A DNA stretch of 64,000 bases from Ignavibacteria bacterium (GCA_039933555.1 JBDTNV010000001.1:9819-73818), one strand, 5' to 3'. Shown: positions 1-17,934, counted from the stretch's first letter. Translations and numbers: made by a program. The notes: generated by a model not told the origin, from the letters alone.

Positions 1-1
1 T

Positions 2-856: not shown

Positions 857-1745
857 TTGTGAGGATATCTTTATTCCTGTAAACAAGCCTGCCAATAAGA
901 ATTGTAAATGCGCATATAAACAGCCCTCCAAGTATATCCACAAAATAATGATATCTTAAATAGATAGTTGCGGCGACCATACACAGCAAATACGGCAGGT
1001 AGAAGTAAAATGACTTTGAGCGGAACTTCCACGAAAGGTATGTGATGAGAAATGCTGTTATAGTATGCAGGCTTGGCATTGCATCGCGCTGAACGTAAAC
1101 CTGCGGATCCTTCACGCCAGGCGGGATTGACTCACCAAAATTAAGGAATGCCCTTATATATTCAGTCAGAAACACTCCGGGCATTTGAGCGCTTATAGAA
1201 TAAAAATCATGAAGATGAAAACGGGGACCGTTAGCGGGGAATATCATGTACAATATATAACTGATGTAAAAACTGAAAAACAGTATGAAGATCGTATATT
1301 TAAATTCTTTATACCTGTGCCATAAATAGAGCTCTAACCCGAATACAACTATCATGGGATAGTAATATGCATATACCAGCTGAAGGAATTCCGTAAGGAA
1401 AGGATTTTGAAACTGGAAGGCCCACTGTGTCGGGTTTAAACCGAAAATTGCAAGGTCCATTTTTATGAATAGTGCGTCCCAATCAACCGGCTTTAATGTA
1501 TATACTATTATATAAACCTGCTTGAATATGAATACAATAGCGGCAATTCCGTACCAGTACCTAATCAACTTTAACGGTGATGAATTACTTATCTTGTTAT
1601 CGCTGTATTTTTCCGCTAAAATCTCGTACTTACTTACAATTCTGTAAATTCCCCAAACAAACAACATATTTACTGCAATGAGTATGTGCCAGTAACCAAT
1701 TTTAAAGTTAAAGTAAAAATAAATAAGAGACAGGATAATAAGCAT
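843..1745 (-). CDS. PAP2-superfamily membrane phosphatase/transferase-like protein
   Basis: Polytopic hydrophobic protein with PAP2-type C-terminal motifs (MPSLHTITAF and YLRYHYFVDILGG). Confidence 0.6.
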   Translation of the reverse strand: MLIILSLIYFYFNFKIGYWHILIAVNMLFVWGIYRIVSKYEILAEKYSDNKISNSSPLKLIRYWYGIAAIVFIFKQVYIIVYTLKPVDWDALFIKMDLAIFGLNPTQWAFQFQNPFLTEFLQLVYAYYYPMIVVFGLELYLWHRYKEFKYTIFILFFSFYISYILYMIFPANGPRFHLHDFYSISAQMPGVFLTEYIRAFLNFGESIPPGVKDPQVYVQRDAMPSLHTITAFLITYLSWKFRSKSFYFYLPYLLCMVAATIYLRYHYFVDILGGLFICAFTILIGRLVYRNKDILTTKNT

Positions 1746-1811
1746 TACCTGTGTTGCTATATCAGCAGGTGAAAGATATTTAAAATTTTTCCTGATAATT
1801 ATCCGGTAATT

Positions 1812-3197
1812 TTATGAAAGCCATTTTAGCAAAAGTGTTGCCAATGAAAGGAATATAGAAATACCAACAACATCCTGAAAAGCTGTTTCAAACGGACCGG
1901 CTGTTAATGCGGGATCAAAACCCAATTTTTTAGATATCATAGGGAATGATGCGCCGACGAATCCTGAAATATTAATTGAAATGAACATTGAAAATCCAAT
2001 TAACAGCCCAAAAAGTAGTTTTTCACCCCATATAGCTGCAACAGTCCCAATGACTAAACCGCAAACTGCACCGATAATAATACTTGTCTGTACAGAACGG
2101 CGAATTGGTATCCACCATTTATTAAGCGATGCATGTCCCGTTGCTAAAGCGCGGACTGTAATAGCCGCAGCCTGAAGACCTGTATTACCCGATATAGCAG
2201 AAATTATCGGCATAAATGATGCGAGCAGGATTATTTTAGTCAGGGTTTCATCGTAATAGTGAATTACAACACCTGCGAAGAATTCAATACCAAGTGTTAT
2301 CAAAACCCACGGAAGCCTGAGCCATGCAATTTGGAAAGGGGATTTGCTTTCTAGTTCCTCGGCATCAGAACCCACGATCTTTGCCATATCCTCTGAAAAT
2401 TCCTCTTCCATAATTTCGGCAATATCATCGAATGAAACCTTGCCAACAACCCTTTGCTGCTTATCAATAACAGGAACGCTCACAAGGTCATATTTTCTCA
2501 TAATGCCCGCAACTTCCTCGCGGTCAGTATCAACATCAACAGAAATAACTTCTGTTGACATAATATCAGCCATAATTACAGATGGTGTATCGAGGGCTAC
2601 AATAATTTTTTTGAGCGATACTATTCCCAATAGTCTTCCCAATTCATCAGTTACCCAAACGTGGTAAAGATGTTCATTATCAGGCGCCTCTTCACGGATT
2701 ATTTCGACCGCGCGTTGAATGGAGTCAGCAGTTTTAACAGTAACAAATTCTTTCTGCATGATACCGCCGGCAGTATCTTCATGGTAACTTAAGAGCTCTT
2801 TTACCTCGCTTGAATCTTCTGCCTCCATCTGCTGCAATACATCATCAGCCCGGGCTTCTTCCAGGTCGCCGATAATATCAGTTGCGTCATCTGAATCCAT
2901 CTCTCCCAGTATATCGCTGATTTCCCCGGAAGAAAGATTTTCGAGGATATAATCTTTCTGGTGCTCGTTAAGCTCAATTAAAATTTCGGCCTGAGTTTCA
3001 TCATCTAAAAGATTAAAAAGTTTTAAGCCCTCTTCATCCCTCAGGTTATCTATGATAAGTGCAATATCAGCCGGGTAAATATCAGCCAGGATATTTCTTA
3101 AAAGAGTATCAGAGCTGCTTGCGATAAGGTCTGAAATATCACTTGTCAGCTGTTCATCAACTTCAATTACCGCGCGATGCTGTTTTTTTTCAGACAT
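1812..3197 (-). CDS. mgtE: Magnesium transporter MgtE
   Basis: Acidic N-terminal MgtE-N region, two CBS-like modules (GGIMQKEFVTV.., IMSTEVISVDVDTDREEV..) and a C-terminal five-TM MgtE channel domain (ISGNTGLQAAA, AGPFETAFQDVVGI). Starts 3 nt after the tsaD stop, so probably co-transcribed. Confidence 0.92.
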   Translation of the reverse strand: MSEKKQHRAVIEVDEQLTSDISDLIASSSDTLLRNILADIYPADIALIIDNLRDEEGLKLFNLLDDETQAEILIELNEHQKDYILENLSSGEISDILGEMDSDDATDIIGDLEEARADDVLQQMEAEDSSEVKELLSYHEDTAGGIMQKEFVTVKTADSIQRAVEIIREEAPDNEHLYHVWVTDELGRLLGIVSLKKIIVALDTPSVIMADIMSTEVISVDVDTDREEVAGIMRKYDLVSVPVIDKQQRVVGKVSFDDIAEIMEEEFSEDMAKIVGSDAEELESKSPFQIAWLRLPWVLITLGIEFFAGVVIHYYDETLTKIILLASFMPIISAISGNTGLQAAAITVRALATGHASLNKWWIPIRRSVQTSIIIGAVCGLVIGTVAAIWGEKLLFGLLIGFSMFISINISGFVGASFPMISKKLGFDPALTAGPFETAFQDVVGISIFLSLATLLLKWLS

Positions 3198-3199
3198 AG

Positions 3200-4213
3200 T
3201 TAATAGTTAAACCTGGAGTATGCTTTCTCCAGTAATGGGTTCCCTGGTATTTTATTGCCAAATGCTTTGAATTTCAAATAAGCATTGTAACCTATCATTG
3301 CAGCATTATCAGTTGAATAAACTTTTTCAGGAAAATATATTTTATATCCCTTTTCTTCATACTTTTTGAATTGAGCCCTTAAACCGGAATTTGCCGATAC
3401 ACCGCCGGATACAGCAATAATTTTAATATTATTATCCTTCGCAGCTTTCATAGTTTTATCGACGAGCGCACCTGTTACAGCTTTTTGGAATGAAGCCGCT
3501 ATATCATTTAACGGCAGGTTTTCACGGGATTCACCAAAGTTATTTTTCAGATAGTAAAGAACAGAAGTTTTAATCCCGCTGAAGGAAAAATCATATGGAC
3601 TGCCTTTTATGGTTGATATTGGGAAAGTATGAAAATCAGGGTTACCCATAGCGGCAAGTTTATCGATTAACGGGCCGCCCGGATATTCCAGCCCCAGCAT
3701 TTTTGCAACCTTATCAAATGCTTCACCTGCGGCATCATCGTGTGTGCCGCCCAGAACTTCATAGGTAGAGCTGCTGTTTACAAGGAATGAGACAGTATGT
3801 CCGCCCGAAACAACCAGCGAAATAAAAGGATAATCAACGTTTTCTTTCCCGATAAAGCAGGAAAACATGTGTGACTCAATATGGTCTATCCCCATAAAAG
3901 GAATATTACCCGCTAATGCAAAACCTTTTGCGTAATTATATCCAACCAGCAGTGAGCCTATAAGCCCGGGTCCTTGTGTAGCAGCAACAAGGGATATATC
4001 GGATTTTGTTATTCCAGCATCTTTTAAAGCCTGTTCTGCGATAGAAGAGATAGCCTCAATATGAGCGCGGCTGGCAAGCTCAGGTACAATTCCACCATAT
4101 TCTTTGTGGAAATATTGCGAAGAAATAATGTTGGATAGGACCTTGCTACTCTCAAGGATAGCTGCAGATGTTTCGTCACATGATGATTCTATTGCGAAAG
4201 TTAAAGTTGGCAT
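3200..4213 (-). CDS. tsaD: tRNA N6-adenosine threonylcarbamoyltransferase TsaD (Kae1/Gcp family)
   Basis: N-terminal AIESSCDETSAAI, HxxxH metal motif (GIDHIESHMF) and C-terminal VSGGVSANSGLR are typical of TsaD. Confidence 0.93.
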   Translation of the reverse strand: MPTLTFAIESSCDETSAAILESSKVLSNIISSQYFHKEYGGIVPELASRAHIEAISSIAEQALKDAGITKSDISLVAATQGPGLIGSLLVGYNYAKGFALAGNIPFMGIDHIESHMFSCFIGKENVDYPFISLVVSGGHTVSFLVNSSSTYEVLGGTHDDAAGEAFDKVAKMLGLEYPGGPLIDKLAAMGNPDFHTFPISTIKGSPYDFSFSGIKTSVLYYLKNNFGESRENLPLNDIAASFQKAVTGALVDKTMKAAKDNNIKIIAVSGGVSANSGLRAQFKKYEEKGYKIYFPEKVYSTDNAAMIGYNAYLKFKAFGNKIPGNPLLEKAYSRFNY

Positions 4214-4216
4214 TTA

Positions 4217-4224
4217 CAAAAATA
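4217..4224 (-). promoter_or_regulatory. Putative Bacteroidetes-type -7 promoter box (TATTTTTG) for tsaD-mgtE
   Basis: The reverse complement reads TATTTTTG, matching TAnnTTTG. It ends only 3 nt before the tsaD ATG, which implies a leaderless or near-leaderless mRNA. Confidence 0.35.
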
Positions 4225-4489
4225 TCATTTTTATTGAATTTTAGCAATTCTACAGGAAAAGACACCATTTTAATTAACCTTAATTCGGCATATATACCGT
4301 TTTAATGGTATTGAGAAAAGTAGCTACTAACCCTAATTTAGTATACCCAATCGGAAAGAAGTTTGTTTTTTGGAAAAAATTGCTTATTATTGTATCCGGG
4401 GGTATGCGCAATTATTATTACGTCACTAATGGCTTTTGAATAAAGTATAACTTTAAGAAAGAGTTAATTTACAAACATTTAAGAATATT

Positions 4490-5800
4490 ATGCTAAAGAA
4501 ACTACTCCCGATCTTTCTGCTGATAGCACTTGCCGCTTCGGTCAGCTACTCTCAAAATCTTGCAGATTCCGGGTATTACTATCAAAAATTAGGGTTTATG
4601 GAAAAAGCCTCCGGGTTTTTTGAAGATTATATTATTTCTAATCCTTCAAATTACCAGGTACGGTTAGATCTTGGCTTTTTATATATGGAAACCAAGCAGA
4701 CATCTAGGGCGAGGGAGCAGTTTGATTATGTGAGCAAAAACTCAACAAATGATAATGAGATGCAGATGGCCAAACAGATGGTCATTAATATTGATGCTTC
4801 CAATGGCAATGTCACAAATAATAATCAGGTCTATACGCAAAACGTAAATTACGCTGACTCAGGCTACTACTACTATAATAACGGTAATAAAACAAAAGCA
4901 GCACAGTTCTTTGAGCTCTATTTAAAAGAAAAGCCCACGGATACGAAAACCAGAATGCAGCTTGCTTATATTTATTATGACAAGAAGAATTATAAATCAT
5001 CACTAAAGCATTTTGATTATGTGGGCAGCCATACAACTGATTCTCAGGAAAAAGAACAGTCAAAATCAGCATCGCTGGTATTAAGAGAAGAGCTCGCTGG
5101 TTCATCAAAGAGATCCTTTGACCTGTATTTCTACAATTTCTACGATTCATTTCAGGAAAACTATATAGCAAACCTTGTTGCACATGTTAACTTTAGGCTT
5201 GGACCCGGTTTGTATGCAGGACCGTATCTGGATGTTTACACAGATTCACGTTCAACAAAGGCGCTGATATATAATGACAGGTTTATTGAGATAGGATTAT
5301 TCCTGAGATATTACATCATGAAAAACCTTTTCTTTGAAGGCAGGATAGGTTATACAAGACAAATTGATCTTGATTCAAACAAAATAAACCTTAAGCCTAT
5401 GCTGGTATATTTTAACCGCTTAGGCGATGCAAAAGTGTATGTAGGAAGCAAATCAGCATCAAAGACAAGCATGTATCTTGATATTTACTATGCTGCAATG
5501 TATGACTATAAATATAAAAATGCTTTCCTTCAGGGAATGATGCAGCAGGTAATAAGATTTCATACAGGCGGGTACTCATATGTTGAGAATTACCTGTTTG
5601 AATCCGGCCAGTTTGACGGCAGAAGGCTTGATTATAACAATTATTTTGAAATAGGGACCGGCATCAGGTTTAAGCCTAATGTTATGGTATTCCCTGTATT
5701 CTTCCTGGAGCCTACTTATAAAGTATATTTCTTCGGTGATAAGAAGAACTCGTTCCAGATAAAAGCAGGATTTGTATTCAATTACAGGGCGGCATTTTAA
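4490..5800 (+). CDS. Outer-membrane TPR plus beta-barrel protein, NfrA-like exopolysaccharide export candidate
   Basis: Signal peptide. Two internally duplicated TPR-like units (ADSGYYYQKLG..FDYVSKNSTND and ADSGYYYYNNG..FDYVGSHTTDS). Tyr/Gly-rich beta-strand C-terminal half ending in aromatic ..NYRAAF, an OMP-type terminus. Lies directly upstream of an NfrB-family synthase. Confidence 0.5.
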   Translation: MLKKLLPIFLLIALAASVSYSQNLADSGYYYQKLGFMEKASGFFEDYIISNPSNYQVRLDLGFLYMETKQTSRAREQFDYVSKNSTNDNEMQMAKQMVINIDASNGNVTNNNQVYTQNVNYADSGYYYYNNGNKTKAAQFFELYLKEKPTDTKTRMQLAYIYYDKKNYKSSLKHFDYVGSHTTDSQEKEQSKSASLVLREELAGSSKRSFDLYFYNFYDSFQENYIANLVAHVNFRLGPGLYAGPYLDVYTDSRSTKALIYNDRFIEIGLFLRYYIMKNLFFEGRIGYTRQIDLDSNKINLKPMLVYFNRLGDAKVYVGSKSASKTSMYLDIYYAAMYDYKYKNAFLQGMMQQVIRFHTGGYSYVENYLFESGQFDGRRLDYNNYFEIGTGIRFKPNVMVFPVFFLEPTYKVYFFGDKKNSFQIKAGFVFNYRAAF

Positions 5801-5899
5801 GCTCAGCTTAAAAAGGTCATAATTTTGGGGATAGAATTATGATTAACAAAGTTATGAATGTTACAAAAACATTAGAGGATAAAAATTTAATATAACTAT

Positions 5900-7234
5900 A
5901 TGCAAGAAGTTTTCACAGTATTACTCTGGATCTGTTCAATACTGCTGATTATCAGCGGTCTTGACGATGTGATGGTTGACCTTCTATACTGGTTCAACCG
6001 CTGGAAGTATAACAGGAGCCTGCCAAAAGTGGATGAAGTACTGGCAGCCAATGAAAACAACATAGCTCTTGTTATCTGCGCATGGCGCGAATATAAAGTT
6101 ATCGGCAGGACACTTACCTACGCTTTGAGCAAAATGAGGTACAATACATTTACTATATTTGTTGGTATTTACCCGAATGATACCAAAACTCTTGAGGTTG
6201 TAAAAAGAATTGCGCAGAAGAACAATAAAGTTGTAATTTGTGTAAATTCTCATGACGGCCCCACTACAAAAGCTGATAACCTGAATAATGTATATGAATC
6301 AATAAAAAGATTTGAAAATGATAACGGCAGAAATTTTGATATTATTTCAATTCACGATAGCGAAGATTTTATACACCCGTTAACACTTAAGATAGATAAC
6401 TTCCTTATAATGCACCAGGGTGTTGATGCTGTGCAGATACCTGTTGTGCCTATTAAAGATGACAGGGGCAAATTCATACACAGGACGTATTGCGACGCTT
6501 TTGCTGAAGTTCACTCAAAAGATCTTGTTGTAAGGCAGGCATTAAAGGTGTTTATTCCTTTTGCCGGCACAGGGATGTCATTTAGAAGGGAAATTTTCAA
6601 GAACCTTGATGAACATTACCCGCAGGTATTTAATGAAGCTAATTTGACAGAAGATTACGAGCTTGGCTTAAGGCTCTTTAAGATGGGCTATAAGACAGCT
6701 TATATAAACCTGTTAATAGATAAGAATAACCCTAACTCACGTGTTGCAACAGGCGAATACTTCCCGAATACATTCTGGGCAGCTGTTAAACAGCGCTCAC
6801 GTTGGACAGCGGGTATATGCTTCCAGAACTGGAAAATGCACAAATGGGGTGGCAACTTAAAGACAAAGTACTTCTTAATGCGCGACAGGAAAACTATATT
6901 CTCGAACTTTATGGTGCTGCTTAGCAATGTTGTGTTTGCCATGTTTTTATTATACCTCTTGGGATTTGGTCTTGGCATCAGAGTATTTGAGTCAGCCGTA
7001 GAACAGAACACCGCATTATGGTTCTTCCTGTGGGCTTGTTTCTTCTTCATGGTTTGGAGGCTCGTTCACCGGTTCATATTTACCTACAGCTGGTACGGCC
7101 TGAAGTATGCGTTCTTTAGCTTGATCAGGCTGAACTTTGATAACCTGATAAACTTCTTCGCAACTTTCAGGGCATTGAAGGTATTTATGAATATGAAGAA
7201 CAAAGTTGTATGGGAATCAACTGATCATTATTAA
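5900..7234 (+). CDS. nfrB: NfrB-family membrane glycosyltransferase (GT2, processive exopolysaccharide synthase)
   Basis: Collinear with E. coli NfrB as recalled: ISGLDD..YW, VGIYPND, GPTTKADNLNNV, HDSEDFIHP, LTEDYELGLRL, QRSRW (QxxRW), RDRK and NLINFFATFRALK, plus C-terminal TM helices. Ends where the NfrB GT module ends. Confidence 0.85.
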   Translation: MQEVFTVLLWICSILLIISGLDDVMVDLLYWFNRWKYNRSLPKVDEVLAANENNIALVICAWREYKVIGRTLTYALSKMRYNTFTIFVGIYPNDTKTLEVVKRIAQKNNKVVICVNSHDGPTTKADNLNNVYESIKRFENDNGRNFDIISIHDSEDFIHPLTLKIDNFLIMHQGVDAVQIPVVPIKDDRGKFIHRTYCDAFAEVHSKDLVVRQALKVFIPFAGTGMSFRREIFKNLDEHYPQVFNEANLTEDYELGLRLFKMGYKTAYINLLIDKNNPNSRVATGEYFPNTFWAAVKQRSRWTAGICFQNWKMHKWGGNLKTKYFLMRDRKTIFSNFMVLLSNVVFAMFLLYLLGFGLGIRVFESAVEQNTALWFFLWACFFFMVWRLVHRFIFTYSWYGLKYAFFSLIRLNFDNLINFFATFRALKVFMNMKNKVVWESTDHY

Positions 7235-7294
7235 GAAAAAAAGCATCACGCTTCAAAATAATTAAGTTTTAAAATTTATACCATGGTATTATGC

Positions 7295-7327
7295 GGGACG
7301 GTCTGAATATAGGTCGTCCCTTTTTTT
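7295..7327 (+). terminator. Rho-independent terminator after the nfrB-like gene
   Basis: GGGACGGTC / GGTCGTCCC stem (two G-T wobbles), 8-nt loop, then T7. Confidence 0.7.
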
Positions 7328-7339
7328 ATTCTCAATTTC

Positions 7340-7379
7340 CTCACGGTAAAACGGGATATATCTTCGTTTTATCTTAAAT
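7340..7379 (+). repeat. 40-bp direct repeat, left copy (DR-L)
   Basis: CTCACGGTAAAACGGGATATATCTTCGTTTTATCTTAAAT is 39/40 identical to 11027-11066. Weaker similarity extends about 25 nt upstream, including a shared CCTTTTTTTAT. Confidence 0.9.
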
Positions 7380-7470
7380 TCCTCCTTCGTTTGTCTTGAT
7401 AAAATCTGTCTTTTTTGTTTGTTTTTACAAACATTTAATATTATATTTTAACAATCAAATTTCACCCAAT

Positions 7471-8724
7471 TTGAAAAAACTGCTTTTACTCACAACTCTA
7501 TTCACTTTATACACTCACCACTCAAATACTCAGTGGGTTCAGCAAACTGTGCCTGTAAGCAAGCCTATAACAGGTATTAAGTTTATTAATGCAAATACAG
7601 GTTGGGCATGTACAAGTTGGGGCACAGGTATGGATACGAGCTATATTTTATATACTTCAAATGGTGGAATAAACTGGCTTGTTCAGCATGCGGCTCTAAA
7701 TGCCAGATATAATGCACTATCTGTAATAGATGCCAATAATATTTATGCAGGCGGTGATAGTTCAGCAAGGGCAAAATTTTCAAAGACAATAAATGGCGGA
7801 TTAAACTGGGTAGATATACAGACACCTGTGAATATGTCAATAGAAGATATGGTGTTTCAGAATAAAGATAGCGGTTGGAGCTGTTCAGGAGTTGTGGGCC
7901 CGGATGTGCGCACCACGACTAATGGCGGTTTGAACTGGATAGTAAGAACCAGTGGTATGGCACAGCAAACACACAGATTATTTTTCCTTAATTACAATAC
8001 AGGTTTTTGCGGTGCTAATTCTTTTTTATATAAGACAACAAATGCGGGATTGAATTGGATACTAAATAGTAATTTCTCAGAAAGTGTTGCAAGCATTTTT
8101 TTTATGAACCAGGCAACGGGTTGGCTGGGTTTGTCAGGAGGTAAAGTTGCTTTAACTTCAAATGGCGGAGCCAATTGGTTTATTCAGCAGCCATTTCCGT
8201 TGAATGGAAATACTACAACGGATATTTATTTTATAAATTCTAATACAGGATTTGCTGGAACGGGCTGGTTTCAAAAAATTTTAAAAACTACAAATGGCGG
8301 AATAAATTGGGGTTATCAGATAGTCCCAACAGGTTCTGTAAGAATTTCAATTGTAGATTCATTGAATTGCTGGGCGGCAGATTTAGGAATTTCTCATACA
8401 ACAAATGGAGGAGGTATGATAACTTATGTAGGAATAAATAATATCAGTACAGAAATACCCGGTTCATTCAAACTTCATCAGAATTACCCGAATCCATTTA
8501 ATCCGGTTACAAATTTCAAATTTGAAATTCCTGAATATTCTTTTGTTAATGTAACAATATATGATATACTTGGCAGAAAAGTTAAAACAGAAGTTGAAAA
8601 TTATTTAAGACCAGGAACATACAGAATTAATTTTTATGCGGCTAATTTACCGAGTGGCACATACTTCTACAGGCTGACAACAAATAATTATACAGAAACT
8701 AAAAAGATGATATTAATAAAATAA
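7471..8724 (+). CDS. T9SS-secreted BNR/Ycf48-like beta-propeller protein (copy 1)
   Basis: Repeated TxNGGxNW / TTNAGLNW motifs. C-terminal NYPNPFNP..YFYRL..KKMILIK sorting domain. The TTG at 7471 gives MKKLLLL.., which aligns with the start of paralog 9083; the longer listed ORF from 7396 adds non-signal-like residues. Confidence 0.8.
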   Translation: MKKLLLLTTLFTLYTHHSNTQWVQQTVPVSKPITGIKFINANTGWACTSWGTGMDTSYILYTSNGGINWLVQHAALNARYNALSVIDANNIYAGGDSSARAKFSKTINGGLNWVDIQTPVNMSIEDMVFQNKDSGWSCSGVVGPDVRTTTNGGLNWIVRTSGMAQQTHRLFFLNYNTGFCGANSFLYKTTNAGLNWILNSNFSESVASIFFMNQATGWLGLSGGKVALTSNGGANWFIQQPFPLNGNTTTDIYFINSNTGFAGTGWFQKILKTTNGGINWGYQIVPTGSVRISIVDSLNCWAADLGISHTTNGGGMITYVGINNISTEIPGSFKLHQNYPNPFNPVTNFKFEIPEYSFVNVTIYDILGRKVKTEVENYLRPGTYRINFYAANLPSGTYFYRLTTNNYTETKKMILIK

Positions 8725-8772
8725 TTCATAGGCTTCAAAATCAAACAAATTAATACCCTAAGGAGGCAGAAA

Positions 8773-9000
8773 ATGTTGAACGCAGTGAAATCTGCTATCG
8801 GCAGAAAGTTACTTACAGCTTTACTCTTGGCATTTCTTCTGTTTACATCTTTTCTCTTTTCGCAAAACACATTCCGGCTTGGTTTTACAGGTGCCTATCC
8901 AAATTACTCCCATATTCTGCTTAACTCACCCACATATAACTCTGACTGGAACTGGTATGACGAGTTCACTATGAATACATGGTCTGCATGGTGGGCTTAA
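8773..9000 (+). pseudogene. Truncated copy (X-1) of a small secreted-protein gene
   Basis: Strong AAGGAGG 7 nt upstream, then a signal peptide and 47 residues. 8876-8995 is 100% identical to 10576-10695. Relative to copy X-2 the body is deleted; only the tail ATCTTAAAT reappears at 9046-9054. Confidence 0.45.
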
Positions 9001-9082
9001 TTCAATTAACAATGAGGAATTAAGAATTATTAATTCCTTTGCTAAATCTTAAATTAACCGCTATTTTAGAGTTGAGGTTACT

Positions 9083-10339
9083 ATGAAAAAACTCCTTCTA
9101 ATATTGCTCATTGTTCATTGCTCATTGACAATTGTAAAAAGTCAGTGGGTACAGCAAACTGTGCCTGTAAGTAAGCCAATTAAAGGTATTAAATTTATTG
9201 ATGCCAATATAGGATGGTCTTGTACAGATAAAGGCACAACCGGTCTTAGTTACGGATATATAATGTATACCTCTAATGGTGGAGCTAACTGGTCTATACA
9301 AGATTCATCTCTTAATACGGATTATAATGCATTGGCGGTAATAGACTATAATACAGTGTATGCAGGCGGCGATAGTGTTGGTTTTGGAAAGTTAGCTAAG
9401 ACCGTAAACGGGGGATTGAACTGGACATACCTGCAATTACCCAGCAATATGCTTATAGATGATATACAATTTTTAAATAAAGATAGCGGCTGGACATGTA
9501 TAGACCTTGTGGGACCGGATGTGCGCACCACGACCAATGGAGGCATTAACTGGATAGTAAGAACAAGCGGGATAGCATCGCAGACACAGCGGATATTTTA
9601 CCTCAATTACAATACAGGTTTTTGCGGTGCGAATACATTTTTATATAAGACTACAAATGCAGGCTTGAATTGGAATTTGTACTATAACCCAAGCGATCCG
9701 GTTAATTCTGTTTTCTTTTTGAATGAACTAACCGGTTGGGTAGGCATTACTAATAACAGGATAAAATATACTTCCAACTCTGGTTTAAACTGGACGGAAC
9801 AAACTATTTCCCCGCCTTCAGGTAATATATGGGAATTATATTTTATTAACAACAACACAGGATGGGCAGGCGTTAGCTTTGATTACATTTTTAAAACAAC
9901 AAATCATGGTTTAAACTGGGGTTATCAAAATGTTACAACAGGTTCAAGAGAATTCTGTTTTATTGATAGCTTACATGGATGGTGTGGATATTTAGGTATT
10001 GGTCTTGTTTCCAAAACAACAAATGGCGGCGGAATAATTACTTATAACGCAATACAGCAGATTGGGAATGAAATTCCGGTTCAATACATATTATATCAAA
10101 ACTATCCAAATCCATTTAATCCTGTTACAACAATTAAAATTGATGTCCCAAAGTCCTCACATATCAAATTGATAATTTTTGATATCTTAGGCAGAGAGTT
10201 ACATAAGGAAGAAGAATACTTGAGAACAGGAAGTTATGAATTTAAGTGGGATGCCTCCGGGTACTCTTCCGGGACATACTTTTATCAACTTATTACAGAA
10301 CAATATACTGAAACCAAAAAAATGCTGATGATTAAATAA
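9083..10339 (+). CDS. T9SS-secreted BNR/Ycf48-like beta-propeller protein (copy 2)
   Basis: Collinear paralog of 7471-8724 (roughly 55-65% aa identity by eye), with the same TTNGGxNW repeats and NYPNPFNP..KKMLMIK C-terminal domain. Confidence 0.85.
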   Translation: MKKLLLILLIVHCSLTIVKSQWVQQTVPVSKPIKGIKFIDANIGWSCTDKGTTGLSYGYIMYTSNGGANWSIQDSSLNTDYNALAVIDYNTVYAGGDSVGFGKLAKTVNGGLNWTYLQLPSNMLIDDIQFLNKDSGWTCIDLVGPDVRTTTNGGINWIVRTSGIASQTQRIFYLNYNTGFCGANTFLYKTTNAGLNWNLYYNPSDPVNSVFFLNELTGWVGITNNRIKYTSNSGLNWTEQTISPPSGNIWELYFINNNTGWAGVSFDYIFKTTNHGLNWGYQNVTTGSREFCFIDSLHGWCGYLGIGLVSKTTNGGGIITYNAIQQIGNEIPVQYILYQNYPNPFNPVTTIKIDVPKSSHIKLIIFDILGRELHKEEEYLRTGSYEFKWDASGYSSGTYFYQLITEQYTETKKMLMIK

Positions 10340-10357
10340 GAATTATTTAATCAGAAG

Positions 10358-10430
10358 TCCCGCTCGGCGGGAATGTTGATTAAGTAAAAATTATTGCTTT
10401 GGCAATAGTTCCTCTTAATAGAGGAAATTT
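10358..10430 (+). terminator. Cluster of three short hairpins after BNR copy 2; the last resembles a terminator
   Basis: TCCCGC-tcg-GCGGGA (10358-10372), TATTGC-tttg-GCAATA (10392-10407) and TTCCTCT-taat-AGAGGAA (10409-10426), followed by ATTTT. Confidence 0.4.
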
Positions 10431-10499
10431 TAATAAAAAAACAATTCAACATTTCAACCCAAAATAACATTACAAAATAATCCTTCAAAGGAGGCAGAA

Positions 10500-11068
10500 A
10501 TGAAGTTACTTACAGCTTTTACCTTGGCATTTCTTCTGTTCACAACATTTCTTTTTTCACAATCAAACACATTCAGGCTTGGTTTTACAGGTGCCTATCC
10601 AAATTACTCCCATATTCTGCTTAACTCACCCACATATAACTCTGACTGGAACTGGTATGACGAGTTCACTATGAATACATGGTCTGCATGGTGGGTTGGT
10701 GATACCGCCCAAACGGTTTTTGGCCGATTAAGCTCACACAGTCTTTATTTGGAAATAGAATTCAGGATATAGGAATAAGATTAGCCTTAGAAGAAAAAAT
10801 TTCCCGTTTTAAGAATTTCGAACAGGCTCACGGCAAAGTTGTAAAAGGCTTTTATATGGAAGAAGTTGACTACAGTAATCTTGCCTGCTTAAAGCTGTTA
10901 AATGATACACTTCTTCCCGCCTGGTCAGGCAGCGACCCGGATTATAAAATGATAGGTTTAATAAACTGGATATCGTTCCGCTCTCCACTAAAGGCTCCTT
11001 TTTTTATGCTAAAAACACAGAATACTCTCACGGTAAAACGGGATTTATCTTCGTTTTATCTTAAATAA
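10500..11068 (+). pseudogene. Small secreted-protein gene X-2, split by a frameshift at a T5 tract
   Basis: AAGGAGG RBS. ORF 10500-10772 (signal peptide plus W/Y/N-rich region) and ORF 10703-11068 (frame -1) overlap. Adding one T to the T5 run at 10717-10721 fuses them into an ORF of about 190 aa. The 3' end contains DR-R. Confidence 0.5.
11027..11066 (+). repeat. 40-bp direct repeat, right copy (DR-R)
   Basis: 39/40 identical to 7340-7379. Confidence 0.9.
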
Positions 11069-11076
11069 CGGATAGT

Positions 11077-11084
11077 TATCTTTG
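11077..11084 (+). promoter_or_regulatory. Putative -7 promoter box (TATCTTTG) for wecB
   Basis: Matches TAnnTTTG, 19 nt upstream of the ATG at 11104. Confidence 0.45.
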
Positions 11085-11103
11085 ATATCTGAAAAGAAAA
11101 TAT

Positions 11104-12285
11104 ATGGCCCAGGAAAACATTAATATTGGTTTGAATCCCGAAGATATGAAAGGGAAAAAGGTAATTGTGCTTATTTTCGGTACAAGGCCTGAAGTTCTGA
11201 AGCTTTTTGTTTTGTACAGGATTTTGAAGAAATCAGAAGAATTCTATCCTTTGCTCTATAATACAGCACAACAGAAGATTTCCGGTGACATCTTAGAGAA
11301 TATAGGTATTCATCCTGATATTACTGCCGCGGAAAAACCAAACCGCTCAAGTGATCTAAATGAGCTTATTGCGCATTTGCTTGGTGACTTCAACGAGAAA
11401 TTTGGCGAGAAATCACCGGTAAGAAAAGAGCATTTGCACGGAATTATTGTACAGGGTGATACAGCCTCTGCATTTTCAGGCGCGCTTTGGGGATTTCTGA
11501 ACCAGATACCGGTCTTCCACGCAGAAGCAGGTCTGCGTACTTATGACAAGATGAACCCCTTCCCTGAGGAATTTATGCGTGAAGCAGTAGCGCGTATGAC
11601 AACACTTCATTTTGCGCCAAAAGGGATTAACCGCGATAACCTGATAAGAGAAGGAATAAAAGCTGAAAATATTTTTGTAATTGGTAACACTATAAATGAT
11701 GCCATATTCACACTCATAAAGGAAAAGAAAATTAAAGAGCCTTTACAGAAGAATTACATTCTTAGCACTTTCCACCGCAGGGAAAACTGGGGTTATGTTT
11801 CTGATTACGCCAGGATACTGAACACTGTAATGGATGATGTATCAGGTTATACTGAAATATTGCATCTCATGCATCCCAATCCTTTGATACAGCGGAGCTT
11901 TGATGAGGTCATGAACGGTCAAGGCCACAAAAAGCTTATTATAATGAAGCCCATTCACGATTACTTTGAAATGCTTGGTTATGTTAAAAATGCGGGATGT
12001 ATATTGACCGATTCAGGCGGGCTGCAGGAAGAATCACTATTCTTCAACGTGCCATGCGGCGTATTAAGGAAAACAACTGAGAGGCCCGAAGTATTAAAGA
12101 AAAATGCAAAGCTGCTTCCCATAGATAAACCCGAAATTACAAGCTTCCTGACAGATGCAATTGATTACAGAAAAGTACACCAGTCAAAATATAATTATAC
12201 TTACGGTTTCGGTGACTCCAGTTATCTTATTTATGAACTGCTTAAGAAATTCTACGGGATACAAACAGAGTTTTCGTATTTATAA
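11104..12285 (+). CDS. wecB: UDP-N-acetylglucosamine 2-epimerase (non-hydrolysing)
   Basis: Epimerase_2 motifs: LIFGTRPEVLKL, VQGDTASAFSGAL, HAEAGLRTYD, PFPEEFMRE, DSGGLQEE. Confidence 0.88.
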   Translation: MAQENINIGLNPEDMKGKKVIVLIFGTRPEVLKLFVLYRILKKSEEFYPLLYNTAQQKISGDILENIGIHPDITAAEKPNRSSDLNELIAHLLGDFNEKFGEKSPVRKEHLHGIIVQGDTASAFSGALWGFLNQIPVFHAEAGLRTYDKMNPFPEEFMREAVARMTTLHFAPKGINRDNLIREGIKAENIFVIGNTINDAIFTLIKEKKIKEPLQKNYILSTFHRRENWGYVSDYARILNTVMDDVSGYTEILHLMHPNPLIQRSFDEVMNGQGHKKLIIMKPIHDYFEMLGYVKNAGCILTDSGGLQEESLFFNVPCGVLRKTTERPEVLKKNAKLLPIDKPEITSFLTDAIDYRKVHQSKYNYTYGFGDSSYLIYELLKKFYGIQTEFSYL

Positions 12286-12503
12286 GAATATGACTTTGTA
12301 CCATTATTCTTTCCACGAAATAAATTCCTATAAAAATATTCCATTATTTAAATAAGCAGTGTTTTCCGGACTATTTTAATACTCCATTCTTGGCGTGAAA
12401 TACCTGCTTCCTGAAAGTCTCAACTATATTAACCGCTTGATTTATGTGGAAATTATTGACATCTTAAGGGAATAATTTTAGTCATATTAAACAGTATAAT
12501 AAG

Positions 12504-13145
12504 ATGATAAAACATGTTATTAAAATACTGTTAGCTTTTTACTGTTTTCATACTATGTCACTTGCCCAGGATCTGAGGCATATCGAATCTGTTAACCAGC
12601 CCGGCGTGAATAATAATGATACAAAAGCCCCCCTTCAAAAGGACTTCAACAGCCAGAAATCAACAATACAAAATGAAACTATAAGCACACCAGGCAATGA
12701 GCTTTACAGGTATTCCTTTGACCTTATGCAGACAAGCCGGAAATTAAAAGAGGAAAGTACATTCAACATAGTGTCATCTTTCAGGCAGAATATAAGGTTC
12801 GGGGGATTCTGGGACCGGTATGCTATTGTAAACTTTACACCTGATATGTACATTAAGCCATTCGATTTTATGAGTATTTATGCCGTCCACAATTCAAGCT
12901 ACTTCATCCCTATTAAAGCAGTAAAGGATCATTTTAAATTGATGGCAATACAAAGCGCTGCAATTCTGGCAATTGATAATACTGTTAAGTTCTTTTTGCC
13001 AATGAGCAGAATGTTAAAGGCTATTGCCGGATTTGTTCTGAAAAACATAGTAATAAACGGTTTGATGAAAGATATCCTCAGCAGGGGAAGCGATAAGATA
13101 TTTGAACAGGGAAATTATTATTGCGCGGTGAGTATAAGATTTTAG
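12504..13145 (+). CDS. Hypothetical secreted/membrane-associated protein
   Basis: Signal-peptide-like N-terminus (..FHTMSLAQ); no recognisable motif; followed by a strong terminator. Confidence 0.4.
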   Translation: MIKHVIKILLAFYCFHTMSLAQDLRHIESVNQPGVNNNDTKAPLQKDFNSQKSTIQNETISTPGNELYRYSFDLMQTSRKLKEESTFNIVSSFRQNIRFGGFWDRYAIVNFTPDMYIKPFDFMSIYAVHNSSYFIPIKAVKDHFKLMAIQSAAILAIDNTVKFFLPMSRMLKAIAGFVLKNIVINGLMKDILSRGSDKIFEQGNYYCAVSIRF

Positions 13146-13151
13146 AAATAG

Positions 13152-13177
13152 AAAACCCGGCATAAACCGGGTTTTTT
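13152..13177. terminator. Bidirectional rho-independent terminator
   Basis: AAAACCCGG-cataaa-CCGGGTTTT hairpin flanked by an A-run and a T-run, between convergent genes 12504-13145 (+) and 13238-15172 (-). Confidence 0.8.
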
Positions 13178-13196
13178 GTTTAATTGTCTTTTATAT

Positions 13197-13237
13197 TATT
13201 TTACCAGCCTTAGAAACAAGGTTGTAAAATAGCTCCG
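13197..13237 (-). repeat. Short copy (C) of the conserved element found 3' of T9SS cargo genes
   Basis: Minus strand after the stop: hairpin AAAATAGC-gga-GCTATTTT overlapping the TAG, then ACAACCTTGTTTCTAAGGCTGGTAAAATA. This is near-identical to cores at 46325-46358 and 47345-47375. Confidence 0.6.
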
Positions 13238-15172
13238 CTATTTTACTAATATCATTTTCTTCACTTCTGAATAATCATTAGTAATCATCCTGTAGAAATA
13301 AACCCCTGAGGAATAGTTCTCTCCGTTAAAATCAACTTCATAACTGCCCGGGGAGAAGTTTTCATCCACAAGTGTTGTTACAATCCTGCCTGTTACATCA
13401 TATATAACAATTTTCACAAAATTATTCTTACCTGTTGAAGGCACGGAAAATTTTATTTTTGTCTTTGGATTAAACGGATTAGGATAATTTTGCAATAAGT
13501 TAAACTTTTCGGGTATTTCAGAAGATAATTGTTTTATTCCTATTACAAAGTTTATCAAGGGCAACTCTATGTACGATTTTGAATTATTATTTATGAGTAA
13601 TTTGTTTAGTCCAGCTTTAAGTGATGGCAGCATAAACGGGTTTGTACGCAGGAAAACATCAGTTGTATCATCATTAAGATCATACAATGGGACATTATCA
13701 AGATTGGTTAATTTAACCCTGATCTTATCTCCTGCCCTGAATACATGAGAGTATGACTGCCCGTTAACATATTTTTGTTTTACCTGGTTTGCGTTATAAT
13801 CCCTGTCAGTCCAGTTGATCCTTGTAACAAGCTTTTCACCACCGTTTGCTTTTACATCCCACACCTGCATATTATACTGGCACATTCCATTTGCCGTTGA
13901 TGAATAATACAGGTAAGCATATGGTGTCCCTGCCATAATTGCATCCTGCAACAAAGCTGGTGTATCAAAATAGATTTCATTTTTATGGAATTTAGCCTCA
14001 AAGAGTGGTCCGCGGAATTCAGTATTTACAAGGTACTCCATTGTTACGTTTGTATCAAGAATTTCATTATTGCAGCTCACGTCGGTCTGCGAGCCACCGT
14101 ACCCATATACCTGCAATTGGTTTGAGGGATGGAAATAAAGCTTTACGTTCTCAACACCCGTAGGCGGCCATGTTGGTGAGTAATACCTGTTCCAGGTCCA
14201 TTTGCTTTCGCTGACCGGGTAACGGCTTGCAGCATAGGTGAACTTCTGGTTAACATCCATAACATTGTTCTGAATTCCCTGAACATGATATTCAACCCAG
14301 TCTCTTAATACCTGTGTCTTGTAGTTTTCTTCTGACTGAATATAGTCACTGCCATGTCCATCCATTACACCGAAATACATTTTTAAATTATTGTAAGGAA
14401 GTATGTATGCGCTTCTTATCTCACCCAGTGTGTTAAAGAATTTATCCTGCCATGCATTTTCAACCAGAATGGGTATCTGGCAATTGTTAACAGTACTTAG
14501 GAAATCGCGGTTCTGCGGAAGGTAAAATGCCAGGCTATCCCATTTTTCCTTTGTGTTTGCATAAATCCACGGTTTAAAACGGCTTACAAGCGGGTTATAT
14601 CTGACGATGCTTGTATCGTAACCTGTTGACCACAGGAATGTCATTTTAATTCCGCCGTTCTCGATCCAGTTAGTGCCTTGTTCAGGTGATGCAAGATCAG
14701 TGATTATGGTTTTAACATTCAGTCCGCTGCAGACCGCCATAAAAGGTATTATGCCGCCTTGTGAACCGCCGTGTATGAATACTTTATTATCGTTTGTGTT
14801 TGCATCGGCTTTCATAAACAGGATGACCTCTTTTAAGTCATTGGCTTCTGTCATGCTGATAAAGTTCGAACGCCCTTCAGAAAGCCCCTGCCCGCGCATG
14901 CTGTAAACCAAAGAGTAATATCCGTTTGTCGCGTAATCTATAGCTTCAGGCATTTCAGTGAATTTATTTAAGCCGAAGCCGTGAGTTATCAGGGCGCATG
15001 GCCATCCGCCTGCAGGCGGCGAGCCTGCCGGAATGAATTTTGTGCAATCAAGCTTAATATTATCTGAAAGAGTAAGCATAAAATCAACTCTTGTATATGC
15101 AAAGCCGGGGGGTTTGGCACTAAGTGATGCTGATAAAAATATTATAGTAAGAAAAAGTAAAATGTATTTCAT
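13238..15172 (-). CDS. T9SS-secreted CocE/NonD (S15 X-Pro dipeptidyl-peptidase-like) alpha/beta hydrolase
   Basis: Signal peptide, HGFGLNK, MRGQGLSEG, nucleophile elbow HGGSQGG, and C-terminal NYPNPFNPKT..YFYRM..KKMILVK. Confidence 0.75.
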   Translation of the reverse strand: MKYILLFLTIIFLSASLSAKPPGFAYTRVDFMLTLSDNIKLDCTKFIPAGSPPAGGWPCALITHGFGLNKFTEMPEAIDYATNGYYSLVYSMRGQGLSEGRSNFISMTEANDLKEVILFMKADANTNDNKVFIHGGSQGGIIPFMAVCSGLNVKTIITDLASPEQGTNWIENGGIKMTFLWSTGYDTSIVRYNPLVSRFKPWIYANTKEKWDSLAFYLPQNRDFLSTVNNCQIPILVENAWQDKFFNTLGEIRSAYILPYNNLKMYFGVMDGHGSDYIQSEENYKTQVLRDWVEYHVQGIQNNVMDVNQKFTYAASRYPVSESKWTWNRYYSPTWPPTGVENVKLYFHPSNQLQVYGYGGSQTDVSCNNEILDTNVTMEYLVNTEFRGPLFEAKFHKNEIYFDTPALLQDAIMAGTPYAYLYYSSTANGMCQYNMQVWDVKANGGEKLVTRINWTDRDYNANQVKQKYVNGQSYSHVFRAGDKIRVKLTNLDNVPLYDLNDDTTDVFLRTNPFMLPSLKAGLNKLLINNNSKSYIELPLINFVIGIKQLSSEIPEKFNLLQNYPNPFNPKTKIKFSVPSTGKNNFVKIVIYDVTGRIVTTLVDENFSPGSYEVDFNGENYSSGVYFYRMITNDYSEVKKMILVK

Positions 15173-15309
15173 TATTTACTGTTATTTAGGCATAATTGTG
15201 TATAAATTTAGCATTTATATATGAATTGTGCAATAGGAGAAAGATTTAATTTTGAGCAGTGTAAATATATGAAAATCTGCTGTTTGTTGTGGTATTACAT
15301 AAGGATGAT

Positions 15310-15795
15310 TTAATACATGAACTTTTTTTGTGTTTTATTATAAAAGGGATAATTTTCAATAACTGATTTCAATAAGACTTCCTGCGGAATATCAATTATA
15401 AATTCACTTATAAAGTGTTGATCGCTTATACCTGAGGCCGATATAACATTAATATAAGTGCCAATATCAGGATGTTCTGCAATTATAATTAGGTTTTGTG
15501 CTTCAGGTGAAATACCTCTTACCTGTTCATCAGGCAGTGAGAAGTGAATTGTGCTAAATGAATTTGTGAACTTAGGGGATGTAATTAAAAGCGAATCATG
15601 GTCATCTATGATACTTACAAGCATATTAGGAAGAGCTTCAGATTGAAGATTACGGACAGAAACTGTTAAGTTAATAATAGAATTACTTGTATCATTAAGC
15701 CGGTTTATGAATTTACCGGTAAGGTCGATAAATTCATTACAGCCTGAAATTAAAATCATTATTAGTAATATGTATTTTTTCATATGATTAATCAA
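15310..15795 (-). CDS. Hypothetical lipoprotein
   Basis: Lipobox LISGC after a hydrophobic leader; no other motif. Confidence 0.45.
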   Translation of the reverse strand: MINHMKKYILLIMILISGCNEFIDLTGKFINRLNDTSNSIINLTVSVRNLQSEALPNMLVSIIDDHDSLLITSPKFTNSFSTIHFSLPDEQVRGISPEAQNLIIIAEHPDIGTYINVISASGISDQHFISEFIIDIPQEVLLKSVIENYPFYNKTQKKFMY

Positions 15796-15823
15796 AAAGA
15801 GCCGGTTTTATCCGGCTCTTTTT
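15794..15823 (-). terminator. Rho-independent terminator after 15836-16234
   Basis: AGAGCCGG-ttttat-CCGGCTCT stem flanked by A and T runs. Confidence 0.65.
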
Positions 15824-15835
15824 GATTTTACAATT

Positions 15836-16234
15836 TTAATCCGTACATAAATTACCTAATCCAACTGTATAAGGGTTGAAGCCACAAAGTGTTTCTGTCT
15901 GGTTGTTGATATCTCTACATCCATTTAAGCCTTTGCTTGGACCAACCCAACTCACTCTAACCATTCCCCACCCAGAATTGACGCATACTAACCCATTGTT
16001 ATTACTTGTATAATTCCCAATGTACCCATCCGGGAATGTTATAGTGACACTTGCTCCTGAAATTGGATTGTTGGCATTATCAACTATTTTCACGCTAAAA
16101 CCAGGCAGATACTCTTTATTGAACGCGTTAGATGCATATGAATTTGTATATATCGATGCGGAAAATATAGAAATTACTACAAGCATTAAAATGCTTAACA
16201 AAAATGTGCGTTTCATGTTTTTAATTCCTTTCAA
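15836..16234 (-). CDS. Small secreted protein with carboxypeptidase-regulatory-like (Ig-like) domain and Cys-rich tail
   Basis: Signal peptide; FSVKIVDNANNPISGASVTITF resembles CarboxypepD_reg strands; four Cys in the C-terminal third. Confidence 0.45.
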   Translation of the reverse strand: MKGIKNMKRTFLLSILMLVVISIFSASIYTNSYASNAFNKEYLPGFSVKIVDNANNPISGASVTITFPDGYIGNYTSNNNGLVCVNSGWGMVRVSWVGPSKGLNGCRDINNQTETLCGFNPYTVGLGNLCTD

Positions 16235-16283
16235 AGTTTAAGAATAAGATTTTTAAATAAATTAACTTGCGCAAGTATTGTAA

Positions 16284-16291
16284 CAAAAATA
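16284..16291 (-). promoter_or_regulatory. Putative -7 box (TATTTTTG) for 15836-16234
   Basis: Reverse complement matches TAnnTTTG, 50 nt upstream of the start. Confidence 0.35.
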
Positions 16292-16356
16292 TGTAAAGCA
16301 TCCGGAGTTTGCAAAGACAGATTAACGAGTTTGTAGCTTTTAGGAAATATATACTT

Positions 16357-16364
16357 TATATTTG
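16357..16364 (+). promoter_or_regulatory. Putative -7 box (TATATTTG) for P-family gene P1
   Basis: Matches TAnnTTTG, 69 nt upstream of the ATG at 16433. Confidence 0.35.
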
Positions 16365-16432
16365 AAACCAAGGTTTATTTTAAATATTATTTATTGATAT
16401 CGTAAGTTATTTTTTAAATCGTATATACAAAA

Positions 16433-17869: not shown

Positions 17870-17921
17870 CTTGCCCAAAATACAATTAATTTGAAGATTT
17901 TAATAATCCATCGGTTTTACT

Positions 17922-17929
17922 TATATTTG
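17922..17929 (+). promoter_or_regulatory. Putative -7 box (TATATTTG) immediately upstream of the glycosylasparaginase ATG
   Basis: The TAnnTTTG match ends 5 nt before the ATG at 17935, which implies a leaderless mRNA. Confidence 0.35.
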
Positions 17930-17934
17930 TAGCT

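Follow-up and report, generated by a model that had tools for sequence, protein, structure and literature searches.

Can an exopolysaccharide machine of the kind that Escherichia coli builds around the synthase NfrB exist in a phylum distant from the proteobacteria, and can it do so without MshEN, the domain of that synthase for sensing cyclic dimeric guanosine monophosphate (c-di-GMP)? The question is raised by a 64-kb stretch of DNA from an uncultured Ignavibacteria bacterium (GCA_039933555.1 JBDTNV010000001.1:9819-73818), here called the window, in which a region of roughly 36% GC carries on its plus strand, between positions 4490 and 13145, open reading frames (ORFs) of 436, 444, 442, 418, 90, 393 and 213 amino acids (aa), in this order. 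The first encodes an outer-membrane protein (OMP), the second a synthase of glycosyltransferase family 2 (GT2) and the sixth WecB, an epimerase acting on UDP-N-acetylglucosamine (UDP-GlcNAc), whilst the three in between belong to a 3.7-kb insert flanked by a direct repeat. In E. coli, NfrB, NfrA and YbcH together with WecB make up the N4 glycan receptor (NGR) pathway (PMC8669469, PMC8669472), described so far only in that species, with homologues reported mostly in proteobacteria. An earlier reading of the window, made from its sequence alone (the sequence-only reading), had taken the OMP, the synthase and WecB for an Nfr-type module whose synthase lacks the sensor and is separated from wecB by the insert.

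We compared the locus with E. coli K-12 nfrB-nfrA-ybcH (NfrB of 745 aa, as the sequence-only reading had approximately given, and NfrA of 990 aa) and with relatives fetched as 35 species-level genome loci and five metagenome loci, whose ORFs were labelled by BLASTP and which are referred to below by L numbers. The 436-aa protein is 100% identical to ABI543_00065, an NCBI protein from a metagenome-assembled genome (MAG), and every close homologue derives from Ignavibacteria MAGs, bearing out the non-proteobacterial host that had been proposed. We consider it probable, though well short of certain, that the core of the locus is a three-gene synthase-dependent exopolysaccharide module with the mechanism proposed below, and that the 3.7-kb insert is a strain-specific cassette that forms no part of the export machine.

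Results

Residues 13-443 of the synthase align with residues 23-475 of E. coli NfrB (37% identity, E=2e-87), in keeping with the collinearity claimed from the sequence for the glycosyltransferase part of that protein, and the C-terminus of the synthase, ..KNKVVWESTDHY, falls opposite ..RRVAWDKTTH of NfrB, confirming that the protein ends after 444 aa at the equivalent of NfrB residue ~475. The DxD (D153-S-E-D156), TED (T250-E-D252) and QxxRW (Q298-R-S-R-W302) motifs are all present and align with D169, D267 and W330 of E. coli NfrB, mutation of which abolishes function (PMC8669469), and hydropathy places hydrophobic helices at about aa 5-25, 335-358 and 371-392. The top six NCBIfam matches are all models of the NfrB group (PRK14716/PRK15489/PRK11234), headed by NF011305 with 396.8 bits (cut-off 409; residues 1-443 against model positions 1-453 of 486) and continuing with NF012033, NF011307 and then NF008411, the NfrB model itself, at 321.7 bits, which is below the whole-protein cut-off of NF008411/PRK11234 (1170). 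Nothing places the protein in another GT2 subfamily such as PgaC or BcsA, as the cellulose synthase (CelA) model scores 20 bits and the PgaC models of NCBIfam give no match. On these alignments and rankings the synthase is a processive GT2 of the NfrB type, and probably a new, deep-branching Ignavibacteria member of the already catalogued short NfrB-like families.

Neither MshEN nor NF053729 matches the synthase in Pfam and NCBIfam scans, whereas the identical scan finds MshEN in E. coli NfrB, and identical tools find an MshE-related c-di-GMP motif in the synthases of L044 and L046. The domain scans and the end of the alignment at NfrB residue 475 thus agree with the claimed absence of the domain. 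Within the 64-kb window no downstream ORF was found to supply it either: a six-frame phmmer search of the whole 64 kb with the C-terminal 265 residues of NfrB gave no match, and Pfam detected no PilZ, GGDEF, EAL or MshEN in 30 window ORFs, which are most, not all, of those of at least 150 aa.

Where the sequence-only reading went too far was in treating the missing domain as a notable truncation, since the 444-aa form is fixed and short families already stand in NCBIfam. Of the synthase clusters with 74-98% identity, more than 70 are 444 or 445 residues long, several database sources already label them 'phage adsorption protein NrfB', and among the NCBIfam models are several short NfrB-like ones with a length of 442-502 positions. 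According to Junkermeier and Hengge, who found NfrB homologues in proteobacteria and rarely in Gram-positives, MshEN is present in 1,705 of 1,841 of them and lacking in ~7% (PMC8669469). Judged by the uniform length of the clusters, the MshEN-less synthase of 444 aa is the conserved norm of this lineage. A recent truncation or a pseudogene was also considered, and rejected because of the fixed length and the intact motifs.

The synthase is also the most constrained gene of its neighbourhood, followed by wecB. Against the eleven closest relatives its nonsynonymous divergence (dN) is 0.02-0.05 and its synonymous divergence (dS) about 0.9-1.4, giving a dN/dS of about 0.03, and in the same genome pairs dN reaches 0.09-0.25 in tsaD and 0.06-0.16 in mgtE, the two genes upstream of the module. 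With synonymous sites near saturation, the high synthase identity reflects purifying selection and not recent transfer, and constraint of this degree is a hint that a core envelope component is made here rather than an accessory biofilm polymer. In terms of amino-acid identity, species-level genomes differ by gene in the same way (94-98% for the synthase, 69-85% for TsaD and 78-91% for MgtE, at a dS of about 1). Recent horizontal transfer as the source of the 97-98% synthase identity between species was rejected on the same dS of about 1.

The product of wecB, which had been claimed as a UDP-GlcNAc 2-epimerase, passes the equivalog cut-off of TIGR00236 (235.4 bits against 210.15; residues 21-382 on model positions 3-364 of 366) and matches Epimerase_2 with E=6.6e-66. 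Far from being a peculiarity of the window, its linkage to the pair recurs in relatives, wecB being the next gene immediately 3' of the synthase in 23 fetched loci. Genes of the type IX secretion system (T9SS) intervene between the two in the window and in L003, L005, L002, L004 and L008, in the last three of which wecB begins at the edge of the locus, and in three relatives the contigs end too early for the linkage to be read. Proteobacterial nfrB has wecB at its side where it is not provided by another pathway, a linkage that has been used to argue for UDP-N-acetylmannosamine (UDP-ManNAc) as the substrate (PMC8669469), and by the gene order of the fetched loci this published rule extends to the Ignavibacteria phylum.

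Two variations of the synthase gene deserve mention beside this arrangement. One MAG carries two paralogues, L028 (RPQH01000026) and L032 (RPQH01000005), which are 80% and 62% identical to the window synthase; the more divergent one, L032, scores 389.6 bits on NF011305 and is adjoined by neither the OMP gene nor wecB. In a sister Ignavibacteria clade (L035-L041), the NfrB-type synthase is encoded by two adjacent ORFs (for example L037:4356-5873 and 5894-7747, or L035:9992-10939 and 11000-13774), the point of division lying shortly ahead of the TED motif (window residue ~242). The first ORF holds the N-terminal glycosyltransferase half, a hydrophobic helix and a weak SPOR-like tail, and the second a DUF772-like (transposase N-terminal) domain, a Glu/Lys-rich stretch of 200-600 aa and the C-terminal half, which begins ..IFNDxNLTEDYELG. 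The halves are 53-63% identical to the window synthase, with the OMP gene upstream and wecB often downstream, and the split is kept in at least six loci, a seventh, L040, being cut off upstream. This looks like either a functional split enzyme or a domesticated insertion. To our knowledge, no such split NfrB-type synthase has been described.

The OMP had been claimed to be NfrA-like, and this is true of its layout and position but not of its ancestry as far as it can be traced. It has a signal peptide (MLKKLLPIFLLIALAASVSYS, followed by Q), tetratricopeptide repeats (TPR), matched in the Pfam scan, in two internally repeated blocks at about aa 25-105 and 121-205, both of which begin ..ADSGYYY.. 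and end ..F.YV.., and a predicted barrel at aa 208-435 that closes on a terminal Phe, the C-terminal 240 residues being strongly conserved. AlphaFold2, run on a 30-sequence alignment, predicts 10 helices followed by 12 beta-strands (mean confidence score, pLDDT, 87), and a model of the barrel only has 12 strands again (pLDDT 82), as opposed to the 16 described for NfrA (PMC8669472). Searched with Foldseek against the PDB, the whole model retrieves TPR proteins and BcsC, whilst the barrel alone retrieves the 12-stranded BrkA, EspP, Hbp, invasin, FapF, NanC and KdgM at TM scores of 0.36-0.46. No Pfam or NCBIfam model covers the barrel, and NfrA_C (PF13283) has no match even at E<=10 in 19 members of the OMP family. 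BLASTP aligns the OMP with NfrA over the TPR only, and so does hhalign when the family profile is compared with E. coli NfrA (1% probability) or with a profile of the NfrA C-terminal family (32% probability), for which reason the OMP was rejected as an NfrA homologue. With architecture and position shared and no sequence link beyond the TPR, it is NfrA-like without being a demonstrable member of the NfrA family; on the predicted fold it is an architectural analogue of NfrA. Its gene lies directly upstream of that of the synthase in most Ignavibacteria loci, at a distance of 99 bp in the window and with a 4-bp overlap in L027-L030.

The OMP is, in addition, highly polymorphic among strains whose synthases are 94-97% identical, with forms of 324, 340, 436 and about 550 aa that vary in their TPR units (by zero, one, two or more), and with barrel identity between strains down to 60-70% and dN up to 0.31 (the window gene compared with L002:8961-9938, L010, L016, L024, L035 and others). 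Such polymorphism would be consistent with allelic replacement, or else with a surface protein under diversifying selection.

The barrel is not confined to the Ignavibacteria. A profile search through 1.84 billion representatives returned 68 clusters at E<=1e-3 and 28 at E<=1e-10, with remote homologues on unrelated contigs at E=1e-9 to 5e-6, and in all four of the remote loci with enough flanking DNA a processive GT2 lies beside the barrel gene. L042, on a contig that also encodes IcmS and IcmT, has an OMP of 399 aa, a 474-aa synthase above the NF011305 cut-off (423.1 bits) and wecB; L044 has wecB, an OMP of 815 aa and a 616-aa NfrB-type synthase with the MshE-related motif (54 bits, cut-off 38); L046:3238-8577 has a GGDEF/EAL protein, an OMP of 564 aa and a 624-aa synthase with the c-di-GMP motif (59.5 bits); and L047:1841-6299 has a PgaC-like GT2, an unannotated 636-aa ORF and the OMP. 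The neighbourhoods of L042, L044 and L046, on proteobacteria-like contigs, show one barrel family as the partner of NfrB-type synthases whether or not these have the sensor, and the family may serve more than one type of synthase. It is a family that has yet to be characterised and that is separate from NfrA.

What separates the synthase from wecB in the window is best understood from the relatives, in which the terminator-like hairpin after the synthase is kept in alignment and the spacer consists of this terminator, one copy of a 40-nt element, and then TATCTTTG about 20 nt before the wecB ATG. The consensus of the -7 box of Bacteroidota promoters is TAnnTTTG, and the TATCTTTG box, which fits it, appears to be the wecB promoter; terminator and putative promoter together suggest two transcription units, one of the OMP and synthase genes and one of wecB. 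In the window, the 40-nt element flanks the 3.7 kb of the insert as a direct repeat (39/40 match, spacing 3687 nt), a match that 0 of 100 shuffles reproduced. It is single-copy in L002-L005, L007-L010, L012, L014 and L023, where AAAACG..CGTTTT is invariant, and it is still single-copy in those insert-bearing relatives that reach wecB (L002-L005 and L008), so that in this comparison its duplication is specific to the window strain. The contiguity of the three genes that had been foreseen upon removal of the repeat-bounded block is what the closest relatives actually show. The 40-nt element itself may be an operator or a leader element. It was considered as a known RNA or a dispersed repeat without finding support, given the lack of a match for it in an Rfam scan of window positions 1-20000 and its single copy per relative locus; two metagenome scans gave one hit, on the contig that also yielded L004, besides the two copies in the window.

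The insert is itself duplicated in tandem, each unit comprising one BNR gene and a small ORF. The two BNR propellers are 60% identical as proteins and carry the TIGR04183 sorting domain (47.1 and 41.4 bits, cut-off 23), and the true start of the first is probably a TTG at 7471, giving (M)KKLLLL... The complete small ORF matches no family and may be the remnant of a longer gene. Between the two units a 131-nt tract (8865-8995 against 10565-10695) shows 99% identity, compared with only about 70-80% for the DNA of the adjacent BNR genes, a difference that points to gene conversion in recent times. Neither an integrase nor a transposase is present. The closest relative, L007, whose synthase is 98% identical, lacks the insert, as do most others, and the same slot holds three BNR genes and a 1581-aa T9SS protein in L002, L004 and L008, one BNR gene and a 1608-aa protein in L003 and L005, and two BNR genes in L031; judged by these contents the synthase-wecB slot is a hot spot where cassettes of T9SS cargo come to lie. 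The features of the locus are listed in Table 1.

Table 1. Features of the module, of its insert and of the neighbouring genes, in window coordinates.
Feature	Position	Strand	Remarks
mgtE	1812-3197	opposite strand	upstream of module
tsaD	3200-4213	opposite strand	upstream of module
Outer-membrane protein	4490-5800	+	436 aa
NfrB-type GT2 synthase	5900-7234	+	444 aa, GT2 domains only
Terminator-like hairpin and T-run	7295-7330	+	directly 3' of synthase; 11-bp stem, 6 GC pairs, TTTTTTT
40-nt element, left copy	7340-7379	+	CTCACGGTAAAACGGGATATATCTTCGTTTTATCTTAAAT; contains hairpin AAAACG..CGTTTT
Insert gene 1, T9SS type-A cargo, BNR/Ycf48-like beta-propeller	7396-8724	+	442 aa; Por_Secre_tail and PSII_BNR matches
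Small ORF, truncated copy	8773-9000	+	92% identical over 65 aa to 10500-10772
Insert gene 2, T9SS type-A cargo, BNR/Ycf48-like beta-propeller	9083-10339	+	418 aa
Small ORF	10500-10772	+	90 aa; signal peptide; preceded by AAAGGAGG
40-nt element, right copy	11027-11066	+	one mismatch to left copy
Putative -7 box TATCTTTG	11077-11084	+	fits TAnnTTTG; 20 nt before wecB ATG
WecB, non-hydrolysing UDP-GlcNAc 2-epimerase	11104-12285	+	393 aa; TIGR00236, Epimerase_2
Downstream ORF	12504-13145	+	213 aa; signal peptide, C-terminal Phe

The ORF downstream of wecB occupies this place in the closest clade only, and its membership in the module is uncertain. A homologue follows wecB in 14 fetched loci (including L003, L005, L007, L009, L010, L014, L016-L019, L021, L023 and L025); the protein evolves fast (dN 0.17-0.57), has no match in a Pfam scan at E<=1, and could be a small outer-membrane or periplasmic protein. 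Further along the window, GC content dips to 0.26 at 16000-18000, against 0.35-0.40 elsewhere, in a tract that may be foreign DNA and contains an ORF (16433-17869, 478 aa) with no Pfam match. The window also encodes more T9SS type-A cargo, namely an S15 peptidase (13238-15172), an unknown protein (47394-49196) and an FG-GAP/ASPIC protein (54800-56572), as well as a Bac_transf initiating sugar transferase (21383-22828). Since the genome is rich in T9SS cargo, the presence of such genes beside the module carries less significance.

Discussion

With the E. coli Nfr pathway the locus shares a homologous GT2 with the same three motifs, a partner OMP made of signal peptide, TPR and C-terminal barrel, and a WecB epimerase linked as supplier of the precursor. 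It differs in the lack of MshEN, with a synthase of 444 aa instead of 745; in an OMP of 436 aa and 12 predicted strands, as opposed to 990 aa and a reported 16, with no detectable homology between them; in gene order, which is OMP then synthase here but nfrB then nfrA in E. coli; and in the position of wecB, which adjoins the synthase here whereas in E. coli it belongs to the separate enterobacterial common antigen cluster. A six-frame search of the 64-kb window found no homologue of NfrA and none of YbcH (DUF4434), hence no accessory gene of the latter kind. The synthase also resembles the short glycosyltransferases of NF011305/PRK14716 ('bacteriophage N4 adsorption protein B'-like), which it matches end to end with a score slightly under their cut-off and which likewise have no MshEN; one of their members, L042, has the same OMP-synthase-wecB neighbourhood but is only 35% identical to the window synthase. 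Like PgaABCD, BcsABZC, Alg and Pel, the locus combines an inner-membrane processive GT2 with an outer-membrane TPR-barrel protein in the place of the exporter. Those systems, however, have porins of 16-18 strands and a c-di-GMP receptor (PilZ, the PgaCD interface, PelD or Alg44), not found here, and they possess periplasmic modifying or hydrolytic enzymes, whereas the core kept in relatives of the present locus is the OMP, the synthase and wecB only. The module is best classed among synthase-dependent systems as a variant within the Nfr/NGR type.

If such interpretation is correct, WecB would convert UDP-GlcNAc into UDP-ManNAc, as expected from its family membership, and the synthase, given its homology to NfrB and its intact motifs, would polymerise a ManNAc-containing glycan at the inner membrane and thread it across that membrane by its own transmembrane helices. 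The OMP, judging by its predicted fold and conserved adjacency, would then carry the chain over the periplasm and the outer membrane with its TPR and its 12-strand barrel. Control would have to be transcriptional, at the level of substrate or exerted via an unlinked factor. The T9SS cassette, in turn, would have landed in a recombination-prone slot, duplicating the 40-nt element that normally precedes wecB.

Several points weigh against this interpretation and keep us from stating it more firmly. The E. coli NGR glycan is itself uncharacterised (PMC8669472). L020 has no wecB within 10 kb, and L006, L026 and L033, at ~82% synthase identity, are without an OMP gene at this position. The nearest solved folds of the OMP barrel are generic, as their TM scores of 0.36-0.46 indicate, and its 12 predicted strands fall below the 16-18 of characterised exopolysaccharide porins. 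The search for a c-di-GMP receptor was confined to the 64-kb window. Finally, several relatives have BNR/T9SS genes in the vicinity of the locus, which makes a functional link possible.

Some of these points could be accommodated by supposing that the polymer is not ManNAc-based, that wecB serves another envelope pathway (lipopolysaccharide, or a teichuronic-like polymer), and that the likeness to Nfr/NGR goes no further than the fold. The terminator between the synthase and wecB, with wecB apparently under its own promoter, would agree with this, and so would L020, which keeps the OMP-synthase pair, L046, where LicD and not wecB stands beside the synthase, and the paralogue L032 with no wecB as neighbour. 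We nonetheless consider it unlikely, for the two genes stay adjacent throughout Ignavibacteria whose synthases are 77-98% identical, as well as in the split-gene clade and even on the unrelated contigs L042 and L044, wecB comes second in constraint within the neighbourhood, and the published proteobacterial pattern is identical (PMC8669469). The doubt could also be laid on the OMP, which instead of a porin might serve for docking or anchoring, or as a channel for small solutes, with the polymer remaining periplasmic or leaving by some other way. This would account for the 12 strands where PgaA, BcsC and NfrA have 16, for a Foldseek ranking led by autotransporter, FapF, NanC and KdgM folds with PgaA, BcsC and AlgE outside the top 50, for the loci in which the gene is missing and for a TPR content that ranges from none to several units between strains. 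Yet the OMP gene stands beside a processive GT2 in four of the four informative remote loci and in most Ignavibacteria loci, its stop codon sometimes overlaps the start codon of the synthase, and signal peptide, TPR and C-terminal barrel are the hallmark layout of synthase-dependent exporters. Moreover, NanC and KdgM are themselves 12-strand barrels able to pass oligosaccharide chains, and we therefore give little credence to an OMP that exports nothing of the kind.

It is harder still to believe that the BNR-propeller T9SS proteins are a working part of the machine, as surface enzymes or polymer binders in the manner of YbcH, PgaB or BcsZ, and we regard this as very improbable. Full-length paralogues do occupy the slot in L002, L004 and L008 (three), in L003 and L005 (one) and in L031 (two), further BNR paralogues lie downstream in L006, L014 and L028, and E. 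coli nfrBA has an accessory third gene in ybcH. However, the slot is empty of BNR genes in most loci, the closest relative L007 included; where such genes are found they differ in number, in orientation and in sequence, being only 30-39% identical to those of the window; unrelated T9SS cargo genes lie elsewhere in the window; the duplicated 40-nt junction is unique to the window strain; and the propellers have no similarity to YbcH. Our preference thus remains with a core of OMP, synthase and WecB, and with an insert that is foreign to it.

A wider proposal can be made more tentatively, as one that seems to us somewhat less likely than not. The TPR protein with its 12-strand barrel could represent a family of outer-membrane exopolysaccharide exporters not described before, and the smallest to date. 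Its members would regularly accompany NfrB-type synthases, whether these carry the c-di-GMP motif or not, both in Ignavibacteria and in certain proteobacteria-like lineages. Combined with WecB and a synthase devoid of the sensor, the protein would complete a minimal module of three genes, the product of which would be a core envelope glycan under unusually strong selection and not an optional biofilm polymer.

Conclusion

The module does not overturn current understanding. What deserves more notice than the missing sensor is the recurrence of a small barrel family beside NfrB-type synthases across phyla, together with the unusually strong constraint on the synthase, whilst the strain-specific insert illustrates how the slot between synthase and wecB acts as a hot spot for secreted-protein cassettes. 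In the E. coli pathway, the polymer, its natural role and the function of MshEN are all still unresolved, the literature since 2022 having nothing relevant on the product of NfrB, and a very strongly conserved synthase without the sensor in a distant phylum offers a minimal system in which the glycosyltransferase with its membrane part, and the polymer itself, can be approached. If the OMP is indeed the exporter, the known size limit of the porins of synthase-dependent polysaccharides would be lowered.

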